A stretch of DNA of 22,875 nucleotides from a virus: UHGV virus genome UHGV-0065784, one strand, 5' to 3'. The notes under the pieces were generated by a model that was given only the letters and a program-made list of their open reading frames with translations, had not been told where the DNA came from and ran no database searches. This document shows positions 1,609 to 14,346 of the stretch, one piece after another. The translations under genes and the position numbers were made by a program. Each line of letters opens with the position of its first letter. Position 1 is the stretch's first letter.

Positions 1609-2085
1609 ATGAAACTCATCAGTAACGATCTGCGCGATGGCGATAAGCTGCCGCATCGTCATGTCTTTAACGGCATGGGTTACGATGGCGATAATATTTC
1701 ACCGCATCTGGCGTGGGATGATGTTCCTGCGGGAACGAAAAGTTTTGTTGTCACCTGCTATGACCCGGATGCGCCAACCGGCTCCGGCTGGTGGCACTGG
1801 GTAGTTGTTAATTTACCCGCTGATACCCGCGTATTACCGCAAGGGTTTGGCTCTGGTCTGGTAGCTATGCCAGACGGCGTTTTGCAGACGCGTACCGACT
1901 TTGGTAAAACCGGGTACGATGGCGCAGCGCCGCCGAAAGGCGAAACCCATCGCTACATTTTTACCGTTCACGCGCTGGATGTAGAACGTATTGATGTCGA
2001 TGAAGGTGCCAGCGGCGCGATGGTCGGGTTCAACGTTCATTTTCACTCTCTGGCGAGTGCCTCGATTACTGCGATGTTTAGTTAA
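1609..2085 (+). CDS. ybhB: PEBP-family (kinase-inhibitor-like) protein YbhB
   Basis: 158-aa ORF with GGAGG 7 nt upstream of ATG; sequence matches my recollection of E. coli YbhB (MKLISNDLRDGDKLPHRH...), PEBP-like motifs. Confidence 0.9.
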   Translation: MKLISNDLRDGDKLPHRHVFNGMGYDGDNISPHLAWDDVPAGTKSFVVTCYDPDAPTGSGWWHWVVVNLPADTRVLPQGFGSGLVAMPDGVLQTRTDFGKTGYDGAAPPKGETHRYIFTVHALDVERIDVDEGASGAMVGFNVHFHSLASASITAMFS

Positions 2086-2705: not shown

Positions 2706-5651
2706 TTAGTGCTTCCCTTCTATTAAGTCTAACCTAGCTTTTATTCTTTCTATTTCTCTGCGCTGCCATGCCGCCTCGATATAGAATAAGAGATCAGGTC
2801 TGACCCCCCATCTAGATCCTGCTGGCGTTATTTCAACGCGCTCAATGATGTCTTCCATTACCATCACTGGATTATCATCCTCATCAACAATGATGCTCCC
2901 GTCATTATCAGTCAGCGGCATTTCCCTTTGGCCAGTAATGACGTCATCATATACTGCGGGATAATCGTCATAGCAAAGAAAGGCATAGCGGCATGTTGTG
3001 CTTTCTTCTTCCATGAGTCCGTGAGAAATAAGAACATCACGAAGTTGCTGCGCGATTACACCATGATGTATCCTCGCCCCTTCTTCCCCCTTTATAGCGA
3101 CAGCGTTCAGCCATTTATAAGCGATATACCTGACGTCACCCCAGGCATCCAGCAATGCTTCGTCAGGAGAGACCGGCTCTGTCTTTAATGTTCCGTCACT
3201 GGTAATCACAGGATTGGAGCCAAGATAAACTGTCGAGAACCTGTTTCCCGGACCACCAAGAGCATTTACATTATCAAGATAAGGTTTAACATCTCCGTTC
3301 TCAAAAAGATGTTCGAGTGCGTTATATACCGCGCGACGTGGAGTACTGCTTCCGGAACCATGCAACGTTATCATTGCACCATCTGCTGAAGACGTTGTTT
3401 CACCTCCGCTAACGATTAATCTCTGAGCGGTAACATCATCAGACGGTACTTTCTTCGCAATAATGGCGTAATTACCCTCAAGTTTGACTTCCGCGCGAAC
3501 TTGTCCTGATGTACCTGCATGGACAGTCAGTGACTGGACGGCAACATCATCTGTGAAATCAACGGGTACAGGAACCGTCCTCACGCCTGACGTCGACATA
3601 AAAGTAGGAAGCGTTCTGTTAGGAGTGGCTCCGTAGACAAAATCCCTTGAAACAAATTCTTCCTGTTTAATTTTCACCCTGAAACAATACAAATCAGCCG
3701 GGTGACCATCGTGAACATAAGGATATTTTCTGTTGTTATCCCCTATGCTCCATGGGTTTAGAAAGTCTTCCCCACCGAAAATGTAGTACAGCCAGTTGTC
3801 TTTGATACAAACTGAACCAACACCAACCGCAGAGTTAACTATTCCGCCCTGATAAATCTGATCAGTAACATTAACCCACTCTACATTATCCAGACTCCAC
3901 TCATTGACGTTAACTCTGGTCATAAATGTTCTTGGATAATTTCCTGCATAACGGTTATCAGGTTCTCCTCCTTCCCACTCACCAAATGCGCGCTCACTGC
4001 CAAAAATAATCAGCTCATCGCCAACTTTGGCAAAAGGAAGGTTTGAGTGATGAACATTATTTGGGAAGCGAAGAGAATTCCATGATGTACCTAAATCAGA
4101 GCTTCTGTGCAATGAACTACCGGGTTGAGTACTTAATGTCCCCCTGGTCGTCAGATACAGAATGCCATCATAATATTTTACACATGGCTCAGATGCATTC
4201 GCCTCATATTCTACAGGTATGCGTCTGCGAACAAAGCTACCAGGAGAACCGAAAGCATCAGAGAAATAGAGTATCCCAAGCTCGCGTGGATCAATATCAC
4301 CATTATGGTAGCCAACAGCAAAACTGTTATCGCTAATCGTCGCAAAACTGTGAATCTCAGTAACAGGAGTGCTTCCGTCAACAAAAGAAGGAATAGTTCC
4401 AAGACTGGTTTTTCTCCATGGTGACGAGTGAAATGATGTACCAAAACTCCAGTATCTACCCTCGTTATTCTGATCCACATCCTGGGTATTTTGCGTCGTA
4501 ACTGTAAAAGTATTTTTATCAATAACAGTAGTCACCGTCATATTCCCGGTAACACCTGTAACACCAGAGTTTGAGAAGTTGACAAAATCACCAGCAAATA
4601 ATCCGTGATCAGTAATGCGAATATAAGCGACTTGCTGATTTGCTGCTTTCGTTATACCACCATAAACGCGAAGGCTGCGACTCATTGGGCGATCCCACAA
4701 CTCTGCAACCTGCAGTTTATTTCCGCTCACGGTCCGCGTCTCAATTACAGCAAAAAGGCGATTTCTGACAACCCCCATACTCATGCAGTGATAGTTAACT
4801 GTGGGATAGTTTTCATGTAAATCTGTAAGCCATTCCGGCGTTGTCCAGGTCTTCCCGTCATCTCCTGAGCGAACCCATGCAACATGGAGGTTATTTACAC
4901 CATGGCGGTCTCCAGCCATAAAAGGCGCATAGATGACATTGTCATATACAAACGTTTTATCCTGCGTCCAGGCGTTGTACCACGGTGTATCTGTAATTTT
5001 AAATAACTCTCCCTGGATAAAATCTTCAGAAGCATAAAAAAGAGGCTGACCCGGTATTCTCTCAAATAAAAAACGAGCATTTTTAAATCGACTGACATCT
5101 GGAAGAGTTGATACTTTAAAAGTAAGCCCTCGCCCATCTATCTTTTCACCACCTGTTGCAACAGAAAGTAATTCTGATAGAGCTGATGTGTCATCATGAA
5201 CACCATCACCAATAGCCCCCCAACCTCTTACATCATAACTGTCTCTCCATCTTGCTATCTGAAGTTTTGGGTATTTATTCGCTCCATCTGGGTCTTCTAA
5301 TTGCTGCCGTAACTGATCAGGATCATACTTCAGCACATTAGGAAAATAGAACTGCTGCGCACCATACGCATCATAAACAGCCATAGAATGGCCTTGCACG
5401 GTAACGAATTTGGCAATCTGTCCGTTATATACCGGATATCCAGCAGCGTTAATGATTATTGGTTGCGAAACAGGAATGTGAGAACCGTCTTCGTTCTCTA
5501 CATAAACCTGAATCTGGTTTTCAGGATTTACCGGGTCAGTGTCAATTTTACCGATATAAATTTTGCCATTGGCTACGGCTTTAAAAGAACGCGCCATAGT
5601 GAAGAGTTGCGAAGGCATACTCACTACAACATTGGCTGTAATGTCTGTCAT
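2706..5651 (-). CDS. Tailspike: P22-like N-terminal particle-binding domain, sialidase-like (Asp-box) receptor-degrading domain, C-terminal intramolecular chaperone (S74-type) domain; probable endosialidase
   Basis: 981-aa ORF; N-terminus [43 protein letters not shown]... closely resembles the P22 gp9 head-binding domain; Asp-box motifs SGDDGKTW and SSDLGTSW; C-terminal ~150 aa resemble self-cleaving chaperone domains of endosialidase-type tailspikes; GGAG RBS 8 nt before ATG. Confidence 0.85.
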
Positions 5652-5719
5652 TTAATTTGCTCCAGATACAAGGAATCGCCGCAGCATTGCCACAGTGATG
5701 CATTATTAATCAAACAAAG

Positions 5720-5734
5720 AGACCACTGTGGTCT
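5720..5734. promoter_or_regulatory. 15-bp palindrome AGACCACTGTGGTCT, candidate Mnt-type operator in the mnt/tailspike divergent region
   Basis: Perfect inverted repeat around a single central base, sitting between the divergent starts of mnt (5798) and tailspike (5651); similar in style to the P22 mnt operator as I remember it (GGTCCACGGTGGACC). Confidence 0.55.
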
Positions 5735-5797
5735 TATTGAGGATGCAACCAGCAGATAATAAGATGCCGATCCACTCACAAAAGCGAGGCATCAAGA

Positions 5798-6049
5798 ATG
5801 GGAAGAGATGACCCGCAATTTAATCTGCGGCTACCTTACGAATTAAAGGAAAAACTAAAACAGCGAGCCAAATCCAATGGCCGCTCTCTTAATTCAGAAT
5901 TAGTTCAGATAGTGACTGATGCTGTATCAAAGCCATCCAAAATTTCAGGCTATCGAGACGATGCGGAACGCATCGCTGATGAGCAGTCAGAGCTTGTTAA
6001 GAAGATGGTGTTTGATACGCTGAAGGATTTGTACAAAAAACCCACCTGA
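5798..6049 (+). CDS. mnt: Mnt-like ribbon-helix-helix repressor
   Basis: 83-aa ORF MGRDDPQFNLRLPYELKEKLKQRAKSNGRSLNSELVQIV...DEQSELVKKMVFDTLKDLYKKPT, highly similar to P22 Mnt from memory; GAGG RBS; divergent from the late genes as in P22. Confidence 0.9.
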   Translation: MGRDDPQFNLRLPYELKEKLKQRAKSNGRSLNSELVQIVTDAVSKPSKISGYRDDAERIADEQSELVKKMVFDTLKDLYKKPT

Positions 6050-6066
6050 AGGTGGGTTAATTTTTG
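6041..6066 (+). terminator. Rho-independent terminator overlapping the mnt stop codon
   Basis: cccacc-tgaa-ggtggg stem flanked by an A-run upstream and ttaatttttg downstream. Confidence 0.5.
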
Positions 6067-6148
6067 CATTTACCTGGGCCATATTGACTACTTATAAAAT
6101 GAGATCAATATTTAATCGCCCAATAACGGGTGTATGTTGAGGTATATC

Positions 6149-6328
6149 ATGGCGAAAAAACCAGGTGAAAACACAGGAAAAAACGGCGGAATATACCAAG
6201 AAGTTGGCCCACGCGGCGGTAAGAAAGACAATTTTGCAACCGTCAAGGACAACGAAAGGCTTCCACCAACAACAAAGCCAGGTCATGGCTGGGTATTGGA
6301 TAAGCGAACTCCAGACAGCAAAAAGTAA
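6149..6328 (+). CDS. Small conserved phage protein (59 aa), YjzC-like by motif
   Basis: ATG at 6149 with GAGG 7 nt upstream and a TTGACT -35-like hexamer at 6085-6090; peptide MAKKPGENTGKNGGIYQEVGPRGGKKDNFATVKDNERLPPTTKPGHGWVL... resembles a small-protein family I recall as YjzC-like; the ORF-track start at 6134 is probably a 5-codon over-extension. Confidence 0.6.
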   Translation: MAKKPGENTGKNGGIYQEVGPRGGKKDNFATVKDNERLPPTTKPGHGWVLDKRTPDSKK

Positions 6329-6335
6329 TAATCAA

Positions 6336-6356
6336 GCCGGGTCACTCCGGCTTTTT
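6336..6356. terminator. Putative bidirectional terminator between convergent genes
   Basis: gccgg-gtcact-ccggc stem followed by TTTTT on plus strand and AT-rich on the other side; overlaps the last codons of the minus-strand gene. Confidence 0.45.
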
Positions 6357-6707
6357 GATATGTCGCTCGCAGAACTCAACAAGCCTGCTCATTAAGTAGC
6401 AGTAAGTCTCGTTGGCTCTTCCTGGTTCAACATCAACACCTACCCTTGAGCAGATATCGAATGCCATGTGAGCGCACTCATGGGCAATAGTAGATAGTTT
6501 GCCATTGAACACGCCTATCACATGCAAAACACCATTCTCGCTACTCATTGTATGAGACGCTCCGTTGGCGTCCGAGTCATGCACGTCAACGCCAAGTTTT
6601 TGATGCAGGCGTTGCCATTCTGGAAAGTCTCTACAAAACACAATTGTACCGCTCTCAAAGAGCGGAACGAGCATCTTTGGTACGTTTCCAATGTTAACTT
6701 TTTTCAT
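6342..6707 (-). CDS. Small HExxH protein, possible ImmA/IrrE-like (M78-type) mini metallopeptidase
   Basis: 121-aa ORF with AGGA 4 nt before ATG; motif HECAH followed about 20 residues later by [13 protein letters not shown], reminiscent of the HExxH...E-x-N-x-FA...LL signature of ImmA/IrrE peptidases; family assignment is from motif memory only. Confidence 0.6.
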
Positions 6708-6737
6708 GGTATCCTGCGCAAAACTAAGGAGGTTGGT

Positions 6738-7232
6738 GTGTCTGATTCTATGAGTTACGCTGTGCTAGTTGCCGCAACTCTATTTCTGGGGATAGGGTTG
6801 CAGATTGCGTGGTTCTTTTTTTCTAGTTTTATTAAACGTAAAAGAATTGAATCAAGGATATCTGAGATTTCTATTGCTATAGGGAAAAATGCTGAAAATC
6901 CAGAGAATGAGGCCTGCGCACTGAATTACCTTAAAGAAAAGTTTTCCCCTGAAAAATTTGAAAACAGAATTACTGATGCTCTTGGATTGGTAATATCAGT
7001 AATTCATATGCCACTAAGTTTGCTGATAACAGTGTGGTACTTCGCCATGATCGCCGGAAGAATATTTGGTTTCATGAATATAGAGCCTGTAGTTCTTTGG
7101 GTTCCAATGATACTGCAATTGTTGTTAAGCGTTGCTATCTTTATTTTTTCTGTTTTTATAAAAATTGTCTTCGGAAGATACCCCGGAGAAGCGAAGGGAT
7201 TTAATAAAGAATTCATAAAAACTATAAAATAA
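6738..7232 (+). CDS. Inner-membrane protein with three predicted TM helices at the sieA position of P22-like phages (candidate superinfection-exclusion protein)
   Basis: GTG start at 6738 preceded by AAGGAGG (6726-6732, 5-nt spacer); hydrophobic segments [75 protein letters not shown]; AT-rich; opposite orientation to late genes, between gp16 and mnt as sieA is in P22. No sequence match to SieA could be checked. Confidence 0.65.
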
Positions 7233-7254
7233 ATGCCGTCCTTGGCTTACAGTG

Positions 7255-9096
7255 CTACTGCCGGGTAGCTTCGTTAACTAAGAGCGGGCGCACGGCAGTA
7301 GCCGCCTGATTTAGCGCTCTTTCATAAGCTGGCGTTCCAGCTTTAGTGTTTGCCAGACGTAAGAGCGCATTCCTTGCTGCTTTGGATTCATACAAGCGCA
7401 TCATTGCACCGAAACCAGCCTCAAGCCCCATTGATACGCCAAGAGTCGTAGTTGCGCCAATCGTCCTTATCCTGTTGGCTTGCGATTGCCCCGTCTGAGT
7501 TACTACATTTGCGGTGTCTGATCTTGCTGCTTGCTGTAGAACTTCATGAAGAGCATCAAGTTCTTTCATGTGCTTTCCAGAAAAAATAGTGTTGTAAATT
7601 TCACCGCCTGACTGAGATTTCAGCTTATTAACTTCAGTGATGAACTTGGCTGGAGAGTCACCGGCCTTTTCCGCTATTTTGCTGACGTAAGCTGCACGCA
7701 TAGCATCTTTCCCTTTATCATCAAGTGCGCTCCAGATTCGTTTCACGTCAGATGGTTTTCTGCTTAATACAACGGTATTTATAAGTTCAGGACTGGCTTC
7801 ACTGCTTGCCTTGTTGAGCTTGTTAGCAATGTTTTTATTAAGCACCTTATTATAAACGTTTGCATAATCGGAATTTGCTTTAAGGTATTTTGCTGCGTCT
7901 GAAGCACCGAGGTTTTTGGCAACTGCGTTACGAAGGTCTTTTGACATTGCATTCTCTACCATATTGGTAGCTGCTTTTGCCTGGTTGGGGAAGACCATGG
8001 CATCTCCCTGAACATTAGATCTAAATGCTGTTCTGTGCTGGCGCAAGAGATCAAACGTAACATCCAAATCAGTTGCAGGGTTTGCTAATTCTTCACGTAG
8101 GTTACGCAAGGATGTAAGCAGGTTTTGATTGGCAGAAGTCCCAAGCCGTTCCTGTCTTGCGATCGCTGTATTCAGAGCATTCATGGTATTTGTGGTATCA
8201 ACTGCGGCATTACCCATTTTATTGGTGACGTCATTGATAACAGCGCCAGCGGCATCCTTCCGTCCCCTTAACGTGGTGGTCAGAGATCTCACCACATCAT
8301 CAGGGTTGTACTCACCAAAACGGTCAAAATAATTGCTTACCAGCTTACTACGCGTTGCATATTGCTCCGCTCGCTTTGAGCCTGTCCCGAGCAAAGCCCC
8401 CTCAGCATCTTGAGTAAGTCCGCGAGTGAAAGCATTTTTCGGCGGGATAACATCAGATGTCATTGGTGTCACGCCCATCGATTCTGATGTGGCAATTTTC
8501 TTTGCCACTTCTGGCGCAATATCACCTTTTATAGCCGTTATTCCACGCCCTATTCCCTTTGCTGCTGCGGAAAGAACACCCTGAGCGGCAAGGTTAACTC
8601 CGGCATTTTTAGCTGCATTTTGTGCGAAATCACCTTTCTGATTTGCGGCCTCTGCCAGTGATCCAATAGCCATGCTTCCTGCCGTTCCAACTCCTGGAAC
8701 TAAATACCCGCCAATTGTTTCTCCAGCTTGAGCGTAGGGGTCTGTCGGTCTGTCTACTGGACGATAAACATCATCCAAAACCTTGGGGCCACCAAGCCCC
8801 GGACTGATTGCATTAATCAGACTTGCGCCGCCCTGTAATACGTCAAATGGTATGTTTACCAGACCACGACCAGCCTGTTCTGCAATTTGCCCTGCACTTT
8901 GACCACCAGTGAGCCAATCGCCAGCTTGTTGCATCAATGATGGTTCTTCCCGTGTTGGTGCATTATTGGCCTGATTAACTGTTTGTTGCTGAACAGCCTG
9001 ACCAGCAAAATACTCATCAATGGCGGTGCCAATATCTTCCGTGCTCGTACCATCAGGGAAGGTAAATGTCTTACCGTTTGCAGTTACTTTCATCAT
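7255..9096 (-). CDS. Ejection (injection) protein, P22 gp16-like
   Basis: 613-aa ORF; N-terminus [30 protein letters not shown] resembles P22 gp16 from memory; last gene of the ejection-protein trio; 4-nt overlap with upstream gene. Confidence 0.8.
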
Positions 9097-10469
9097 TCCA
9101 CCGTAAATTGAATGCCTGATTTTGACGTGTAGCTACCTCCTGCTGATTGCTGAGTAGCTGGCTGTTGCCTTGATGATTTCTTCCCGCCATTACCGACATT
9201 AACGTTATATTGCTGGTTGTAATTGTCGGTATATTGCTGAATGTCGCGCATTGATTGTTGCAGTGCTTCAGGGCTTGAGAAATCAACCTGTGGCATACCT
9301 TGAAAATACATCTTTGCTTCTGCAACGGTGTTGATACCGGATGCCCCCATGTCTCTGGCTGCTGCAATGCCCTGATTCTGCATCTTTCCTTGGATTCGCT
9401 GTGCAGCGTTGTATAGTTTCCTCTGATCACCACCAGATGCACGGCTACGAATATCTGCACCAAGAGCAGGAGAACCTGAAGAGCCTGTAATGCCAGTCAT
9501 GAAGCCAAGATCGTCAATTGATGCACCAGAAATTGCATCAAGATCTTTCTTCATTGCGTAATTCTGCGCGCTTGCTGCCGATGTAGCCGGAGCGGCAATA
9601 GAACCAGCAGGAACGCGAACCATATTCCCCTCGTTGTCGATACCTTCGTAGAACGCATTAGCCCCAGCGCCGTGAAGCTTCCCGCCTACCGTTACAGTTC
9701 TGCCATCTGCTAACTGAACTGTACGCTCATTATTCCCAACCGCCCCTTTCATTGATGCTCTCTGCATCGATAAATCCTGACCGCGCATCGTGATATTCTG
9801 ACCACGCGCTGTTAGCGCCTCGCCAGCCTGATTGCTGCGGATTGTCTCTGCCAGTCTGCCTCGGTCAATCTCACGACCAGCTATCTTGTCCTGAACATTG
9901 AAGTAATCAATCGGACCAAGTGCAGCCATTCCAAGGTGATCAACAAACTCTGTGAAACCTTGTGGATTTTGCTGATACATTTTCGCCACATCCAGAGGGT
10001 CTACTCCGGCACGAGTAAGCTCAGATGAGTTGTTCTGCAACCATGACATCATGGCTTCTGGAGATGAAGCTGCGAGTCTGGCACTTGCTGCCAGTGTACC
10101 GACAGTGGAACGCTGGTCTTCATCGACAAATTTCATGCCGTTTCTTACAGCGTCAAGCTGCTCAGGATACTGTGATGCCAGCTTTCGCATTGCATCGCGG
10201 TCACCAGATGTATATGCATCAGCATAAGCCTGCTGAAACTCTTGCTGTCGCTTCTGCTGATCCATCTGCTTATACATATCCATGACAGATGAAATGCCCT
10301 GTAAAGCCTGCAAGCCAACGTTATTACGTCCTGAACGCTCCATCTCGTTATTCTGTCGAATGTATGCAAGCGTGGCGTCTGCATCACTTGCTCTTGGAGC
10401 GTTGGAGTTCATGCCGCCTAACCCGGCAAGAAGCGCGCCTGAATTACCAGCCTGTTGCCATGTAGCCAA
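9093..10469 (-). CDS. Ejection protein, P22 gp20-like
   Basis: 458-aa ORF in the gp7-gp20-gp16 position; size close to P22 gp20; translationally coupled to gp16. Confidence 0.75.
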
Positions 10470-13855: not shown

Positions 13856-13863
13856 TTATTCAC

Positions 13864-14346
13864 CTATGCGTTTGGGATATCGCCATCAATCAGAGGGAGA
13901 TCGCCTGGATAATATCGGTCAGATGTAAACACGTCATATTTATTACCCTGTCCTACAGGAAAATCTCCACGTCGTCGCATTGAAGGAACAACCAGAGTGT
14001 CGGTCATCAAGGCATCATATGAGCGTTGGGCGTTACTGAGAACTTGCGAAGTTGGCTCAAGGCTGTAATCAGATAGCATTCTCAGCAATAACTGATAGCC
14101 TACTGCGTGTTTGTATTTTCTTGGAAGACCTGACTCATCATCAGGTAATGGCTGCTCATCTCCAGTTGCGAAAGCGTAACCAATGTCGCCGGGGTTAATC
14201 ATCCACTCGGACATCATATCTTCCAGATCATTTACACCATCTTCAATTGATTGCGGCTCAACATCAGTCAGCGATGCATTAGAAGCAATAGCAAACTTAC
14301 GAAGCGCAAAAAGGACGATCTCACCCTTTGTCAGTACTGTTGCCAT
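13864..14346 (-). CDS. Head completion / tail adaptor protein, P22 gp4-like
   Basis: 160-aa ORF; motifs SLTDVEPQS and DLEDMMSEW resemble P22 gp4 from memory; AAGG RBS. Confidence 0.8.
   Translation of the reverse strand: MATVLTKGEIVLFALRKFAIASNASLTDVEPQSIEDGVNDLEDMMSEWMINPGDIGYAFATGDEQPLPDDESGLPRKYKHAVGYQLLLRMLSDYSLEPTSQVLSNAQRSYDALMTDTLVVPSMRRRGDFPVGQGNKYDVFTSDRYYPGDLPLIDGDIPNA

Follow-up and report, generated by a model that had tools for sequence, protein, structure and literature searches.

Does the small membrane protein encoded beside gene 16 of a P22-like prophage belong to the family of SieA, the superinfection exclusion protein of phage P22, or is it another protein that has come to occupy the sieA position? 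We addressed this question in a stretch of 22,875 nucleotides (the window), where a sequence-only reading had singled out the gene as a candidate superinfection-exclusion factor with the caveat that it might be an analog rather than a homolog of SieA. Our analysis points to a sieA ortholog of an E. coli P22-like prophage, which would exclude P22-like phages by interfering with the conduit through which they inject their DNA; we assign this reading a probability of roughly 0.93. The features on which the argument is built are listed in Table 1.

Table 1. Features of the sieA locus and of the neighbouring prophage genes, with positions in the window
Feature	Position	Strand	Basis or remark
sieA coding sequence, type A SieA	6738..7232	+	GTG start, 164 codons plus stop
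Shine-Dalgarno sequence AAGGAGG	6726..6732	+	5 nt 5' of GTG 6738; sequence
Putative PsieA equivalent	6677..6707	+	P22 annotation, record positions 13861-13891
Predicted TM helix 1, ~residues 6-30	6753..6827	+	Kyte-Doolittle up to 1.87; helical in AF2 model
Charged loop, ~residues 31-80, predicted cytoplasmic	6828..6977	+	Begins KRKR
Predicted TM helix 2, ~residues 81-104	6978..7049	+	Kyte-Doolittle up to 2.17; AF2 helix 71-109
Predicted TM helix 3, ~residues 117-144	7086..7169	+	Kyte-Doolittle up to 2.47; AF2 helix 117-147
Motif FxRYPxEAxxFNK, residues 145-157, predicted cytoplasmic C-terminal tail	7170..7208	+	Sequence; motif per PMC10883804
hkcC homolog, 121 aa	6342-6707	-	phrog_1365; 99% identical in HK620 and P22
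Mnt homolog	5798-6049		Arc and Repressor_Mnt Pfam domains
Tailspike, 981 aa	2706-5651	-	P22-type head-binding domain, full endosialidase domain set, S74 chaperone
Gene 16 homolog, ejection protein, SieA target class	7255..9096	-	phrog_770 'DNA transfer protein', E=7e-277; 75% identical to P22 gp16
Gene 20 homolog, ejection protein, SieA target class	9093..10469	-	phrog_917, E=2e-206; 61% identical to P22 gp20

Extent and control region of the gene

We confirmed that a real gene is present at this position. The reading frame closes with a TAA stop codon at 7230-7232, as read from the sequence, and the Shine-Dalgarno sequence in front of it is identical to that of P22 and to that of the E. coli YP3 prophage, which carries hkcB. 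The GC content of the gene is low (35.6%, against 46-47% in hkcC and gene 16 and 47.4% in the whole window), as would be expected if a chance ORF had been picked up in an AT-rich spacer. However, stop codons are frequent in AT-rich DNA, so that a frame of 164 codons is unlikely to appear in it by chance. The strong ribosome-binding site, a full-length match to a protein family profile, conservation in both Salmonella phages and E. coli prophages and a dN/dS below 1 also speak against a chance ORF, for which the remaining probability is negligible.

The length of P22 SieA has been given as "162 or 164" residues, and its start codon has been called uncertain (PMC10883804). For the gene in the window, GTG 6738 is preferred over the upstream ATG 6522 on the basis of the P22 annotation and of a cassette breakpoint described below. 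Choosing the longest ORF gives a 236-aa frame from ATG 6522, which we rejected as an artefact: a ribosome-binding site is lacking, and the extension runs antisense to the conserved hkcC. ATG 6750, a start that would yield 160 aa, was rejected as well, lying 17 nt from the Shine-Dalgarno sequence.

The stretch corresponding to the putative promoter of P22 sieA lies inside hkcC, on the opposite strand, and all of its bases (31/31 in the DNA alignment) are shared by the window and P22. A simple scan for the sigma-70 consensus did not call this stretch, in which the consensus is not strong. In P22, PsieA is likewise termed "putative" and the transcription of sieA in lysogens is low (PMC10883804), which the weak sigma-70 match would fit. 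We retained PsieA as a putative promoter because of its 100% conservation with P22 and because of a published functional construct with 85 bp of upstream DNA: a unit made up of sieA, these 85 bp and 22 bp of downstream DNA suffices to exclude phages (Leavitt et al. 2024, PMC10883804). Over the same flanks, the window differs from P22 at one upstream position (6718) and two downstream positions (7250 and 7253).

Sequence relationship to P22 SieA

Aligned with P22 SieA by BLASTP, the predicted protein shares 152 of 164 residues (93%), with 160 positives, no gaps and an E value of 3e-114. Its residues 1-164 also cover positions 1-164 of the profile phrog_7745, "superinfection exclusion SieA-like" (E=7e-109). 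A tblastn search of 50,697 phage records returned 41 matching records, all at 90-95% identity and all from P22 and P22-like Salmonella phages (92% for P22 and its relatives); many of them are annotated as sieA or as superinfection exclusion protein. The motif FxRYPxEAxxFNK, which is found at residues 145-157 of P22 SieA and is the only motif reported as conserved in each of the three sequence types of the family (PMC10883804), occurs at the same residues here and differs from its P22 counterpart only by N153K, at an "x" position.

Scans of the protein against Pfam, NCBIfam and PADLOC-DB 2.0 gave nothing above threshold (for PADLOC, none at E<=0.01), and the Pfam matches at noise level included Kri1 and DUF6161 (E ~0.03). 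As these collections hold no family model for SieA, its membership is argued from PHROGs, pairwise identity and the literature. The empty scans, together with the functional diversity of small multi-helix phage membrane proteins, might be taken to favour a protein of another role, such as a holin-like protein, a toxin or an abortive-infection factor, that merely sits in the sieA position. However, a full-length identity of 93% to an experimentally characterised SieA rules out a separate family, and the lysis genes are located elsewhere in the prophage, away from sieA; such a role is very improbable.

All four of the defining features of type A SieA that can be checked in a sequence are present. 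By these features, the gene belongs to type A and is an ortholog of P22 sieA, thus a homolog and not an analog. The earlier proposal, a membrane protein for superinfection exclusion in the sieA position, is in this way supported by full-length homology, and its caveat about an analog can be dropped in view of the 152/164 identity, the phrog_7745 match and the gene order and control region shared with P22.

Predicted architecture and topology

The sequence-only reading had also described a protein of about 164 aa, in which one N-terminal and two C-terminal hydrophobic helices surround a charged soluble segment, and hydropathy analysis confirmed this arrangement. Using Kyte-Doolittle values in 19-residue windows (mean >=1.6), we found three hydrophobic blocks (Table 1); the charged segment quoted earlier corresponds to residues 33-80. 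The first helix begins at residue 6, and the protein shows the three helices, without signal peptide or N-terminal extension, that characterise type A; the lack of an extension is what aligns it with type A, like P22 SieA.

The topology was predicted by the positive-inside rule. Residues 31-82, which span the charged loop, contain 10 K/R and 9 D/E, and the K/R residues elsewhere are distributed as none in residues 1-5, one in residues 105-118 and six in the C-terminal tail (141-164). Under the rule, this distribution would place the loop in the cytoplasm. From an N-terminus predicted to be periplasmic, the chain would thus pass to the charged loop in the cytoplasm, make a very short turn in the periplasm and end with its C-terminus in the cytoplasm. 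The arrangement agrees with the published topology of P22 SieA, in which the C-terminal motif is assigned to the cytoplasmic face (PMC10883804). A single-sequence AlphaFold2 model consists entirely of helices (residues 2-51, 57-68, 71-109, 117-147 and 152-163), which cover the three hydrophobic blocks, with only moderate confidence (pLDDT 67, pTM 0.43), and a sequence search of the PDB found no solved relative.

Genomic context in an E. coli prophage

The window comes from an E. coli chromosome and holds a P22-like prophage next to ybhB/bioA. Its genes follow the order gene 20 - gene 16 / sieA / hkcC / orf59a / mnt / tailspike, which is the same as in P22. The gene had been described as transcribed opposite to the late operon and directly beside gp16, and indeed it is convergent with the gene 16 homolog, the stop codons of the two being 22 bases apart. 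It lies between the gene 16 homolog and the tailspike gene, both on the minus strand. In E. coli prophages, type A or type B SieA is always encoded between the homologs of gene 16 and gene 9 (PMC10883804).

The prophage is mosaic, with HK620-like and Sf6-like phages as its best matches, which cover about half of the window. The part that is ~96% identical to P22 runs from the middle of mnt to the end of sieA. A 1.7-kb segment around the locus (5600-7300) is 100% identical to E. coli CUVET21-PYO5 and 99.8-99.9% identical to five more complete genomes. Among 5,426 complete E. coli genomes, 35 contain type A sieA DNA. The endosialidase domains of the tailspike point to specificity for the K1 polysialic-acid capsule; the prophage would be CUS-3-like in host range, and it also carries a P22-type sieA. 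In the host DNA that flanks the prophage end, ybhB is present at 1609-2085 (+), and a solitary TnpB/InsQ gene with OrfB_IS605 and Cas12f1-like TNB domains (370-1500, -) lies between bioA and ybhB.

Two neighbouring genes are worth mentioning. The hkcC gene is intact in P22 yet unannotated in the reference P22 records. Its product has an HExxH motif (HECAH), and its sole resemblance in the PDB, to thermolysin/neutral protease, is non-significant (E=0.09). The immunity I region (5652-6049) is reduced to mnt, and because arc and ant are absent, the control region of mnt abuts the tailspike gene. Upstream of mnt, the palindrome AGACCACTGTGGTCT (5720-5734) takes the place of the core of the P22 Mnt operator, GGTCCACCGTGGACC, and 20 residues of Mnt differ from P22, including H7Q. 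The altered palindrome and the differences in Mnt suggest an operator specificity that is different from that of P22.

A second gene in the same slot

In many P22-like prophages of E. coli, homology with the window ends at about position 6740. The prophage of E. coli YP3 (L005, 4541-4968) illustrates this. As in HK620-type prophages, its DNA is identical to that of the window over the promoter stretch, the ribosome-binding site and the start codon, and diverges right after the GTG. A breakpoint immediately behind this codon supports GTG 6738 as the true start of sieA.

The protein encoded in the slot of YP3 is HkcB, which is 97% identical to hkcB of HK620, has relatives at 49% identity in CUS-3 and epsilon34, and belongs to phrog_5962, a PHROG with no assigned function. 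It consists of 109 aa, with one N-terminal hydrophobic helix followed by a charged, coiled-coil-like remainder. HK620 hkcB thus resembles sieA in having the identical slot, upstream DNA, ribosome-binding site and GTG and in coding for a small membrane-anchored protein, and differs from it in its shorter length, its single helix and the absence of detectable similarity to SieA. DNA of the hkcB type is present in 117 of the 5,426 E. coli genomes, as compared to 35 for type A sieA. HkcB, rather than the protein in the window, is a candidate for an analog in the sieA slot, where it may serve as an alternative factor of exclusion.

Divergence from P22 and selection

The sieA DNA of the window is 95.8% identical to that of P22; 21 of 492 nt differ, through 12 nonsynonymous and 9 synonymous changes. 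The resulting dN/dS of 0.36, although calculated from small counts (12 vs 9), shows sieA to be under purifying selection. The substitutions from P22 to the window are L26F, N30S, L37I, V44I, K53E, Y60C, V61A, R73K, I85V, I91M, I132V and N153K; all are conservative or in the variable loop, and half of them (6/12) fall in the charged loop (~31-80). Two neighbours on the same recombinant segment have lower values, with 0.05 for hkcC, which is under strong purifying selection, and 0.06 for orf59a. Low GC content combined with faster evolution than hkcC and orf59a gives sieA a moron-like signature, based on few substitutions.

We also compared the resident ejection proteins with the positions at which P22 escapes from SieA, which are C-terminal changes in gp16 (G532W and P546S) and gp20 (T338I, T341I, A348T and G350D) (PMC10883804). 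The resident gp16 has G at the position of P22 G532 and T (residue 550) at that of P22 P546, and the resident gp20 keeps T338, T341, A348 and G350, so that five of the six escape positions are P22-like overall. The T at the P546 position was given no weight, because P546S by itself gives no escape in P22 (PMC10883804).

These differences could be read in another way, namely that the gene is a sieA ortholog whose target range has been altered, or whose activity has been lost, through the 12 substitutions or the E. coli context, for example by tuning to HK620-type gp16/gp20 or as a decaying moron. The dN/dS of sieA above those of hkcC and orf59a, the exchangeability of the locus and the T in resident gp16 at the site of the P22 escape allele P546S would all be in line with such a change. 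However, the substitutions are conservative and spare the family motif, the counts of changes are small (12 vs 9), and the ORF, the ribosome-binding site and the promoter stretch are intact. In addition, type A and type B SieA, which are only 24% identical to each other, have indistinguishable specificity (PMC10883804), so that a divergence of 7% is unlikely to matter. We consider an altered or inactive SieA improbable, and prefer an ortholog that would act as in P22.

Proposed mode of exclusion

A single chromosomal copy of P22 sieA cuts the plating of P22 by at least 1e7 and its lysogenisation by 1e5; the protein stops the potassium efflux that accompanies DNA entry, and in its FLAG-tagged form it was found exclusively in the inner membrane by membrane fractionation (PMC10883804). 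It is active against P22-like phages only and functions in Salmonella and in E. coli, including K1 hosts; in E. coli it excludes the K1 phage CUS-3 to <=1e-8, while HK620 largely escapes (PMC10883804).

By analogy with P22 SieA, we infer that the allele in the window is expressed, resides in the inner membrane and excludes phages in the same manner. Its expression in the prophage would probably be low and driven by a weak promoter of its own immediately upstream, and the 164-aa product would enter the inner membrane via its three predicted helices. An incoming P22-like phage would then adsorb and release its ejection proteins, and SieA would disturb the formation or the functioning of the DNA-delivery conduit, in which gp20 is the periplasmic and gp16 the inner-membrane component. 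The incoming DNA would be kept out of the cytoplasm, so that the lysogen would survive and the resident prophage would not be displaced. SieA presumably contacts the conduit directly, although contact with gp16 and gp20 is a model even for P22.

The observations on the slot invite a broader and more speculative proposal, which we regard as rather unlikely. The region behind gene 16 might be a plug-in slot, in which a fixed promoter, ribosome-binding site and GTG drive interchangeable membrane proteins that block injection (sieA and hkcB), each with its own target range; the specificity of the E. coli sieA, with its 12 changes and with T at the P546 escape position of the resident gp16, would then be shifted relative to P22 SieA.

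Significance for annotation and phage immunity

The sieA gene of the window is already known, in that the mechanism, the diversity of the family and its occurrence in E. coli prophages have been published (PMC10883804). Several E. coli genomes in RefSeq list alleles with 98-99.8% identical DNA under the name "superinfection exclusion protein A", while the allele identical to that of the window is labelled "hypothetical protein", as it is in several genomes; the SieA annotation could be transferred to these entries. Other P22-like phages, K1-specific CUS-3-like ones among them, are probably unable to inject their DNA into an E. coli lysogen that carries this prophage, and the predicted immunity would be relevant to phage typing and therapy directed against K1 strains. 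Beyond correct annotation, the consequences are small.

Comparison with known exclusion systems

T4 Imm is a membrane protein that blocks DNA entry after adsorption. HK97 gp15, Sie2009 of Tuc2009 and Ltp of TP-J34 are prophage or phage membrane proteins that act at the same stage (PMC10883804). These four proteins are unrelated to SieA in sequence and are not members of its family. They also differ in their targets, which are the tape-measure conduits of long-tailed phages or T4, as compared to the conduit of P22 gp7, gp20 and gp16 in the case of SieA.

Within the family, type B SieA (prophage HS1 of E. coli HS) and type C SieA (Providencia, Morganella and Proteus) share the locus, the exclusion phenotype and the C-terminal motif with type A (PMC10883804). 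They are only ~25% identical to type A and carry an N-terminal extension of 30-40 residues with a fourth helix, whereas the protein in the window has no such extension; it was set apart from types B and C by their published descriptions (PMC10883804).

The closest relative is P22 SieA itself (Hofer et al. 1995; PMC10883804). The two genes agree in coding for 164 aa from a GTG start behind the same ribosome-binding site, in the three predicted helices and the C-terminal motif, in the identical putative promoter stretch, and in being placed, in the same orientation, between gene 16 and the immI/tailspike region. They differ in the 12 substitutions of the window allele and in their surroundings, as the window gene resides in an E. 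coli host, within a mosaic prophage that has a K1 endosialidase tailspike, lacks arc and ant, and encodes gp16 and gp20 that are 75% and 61% identical to their P22 counterparts.
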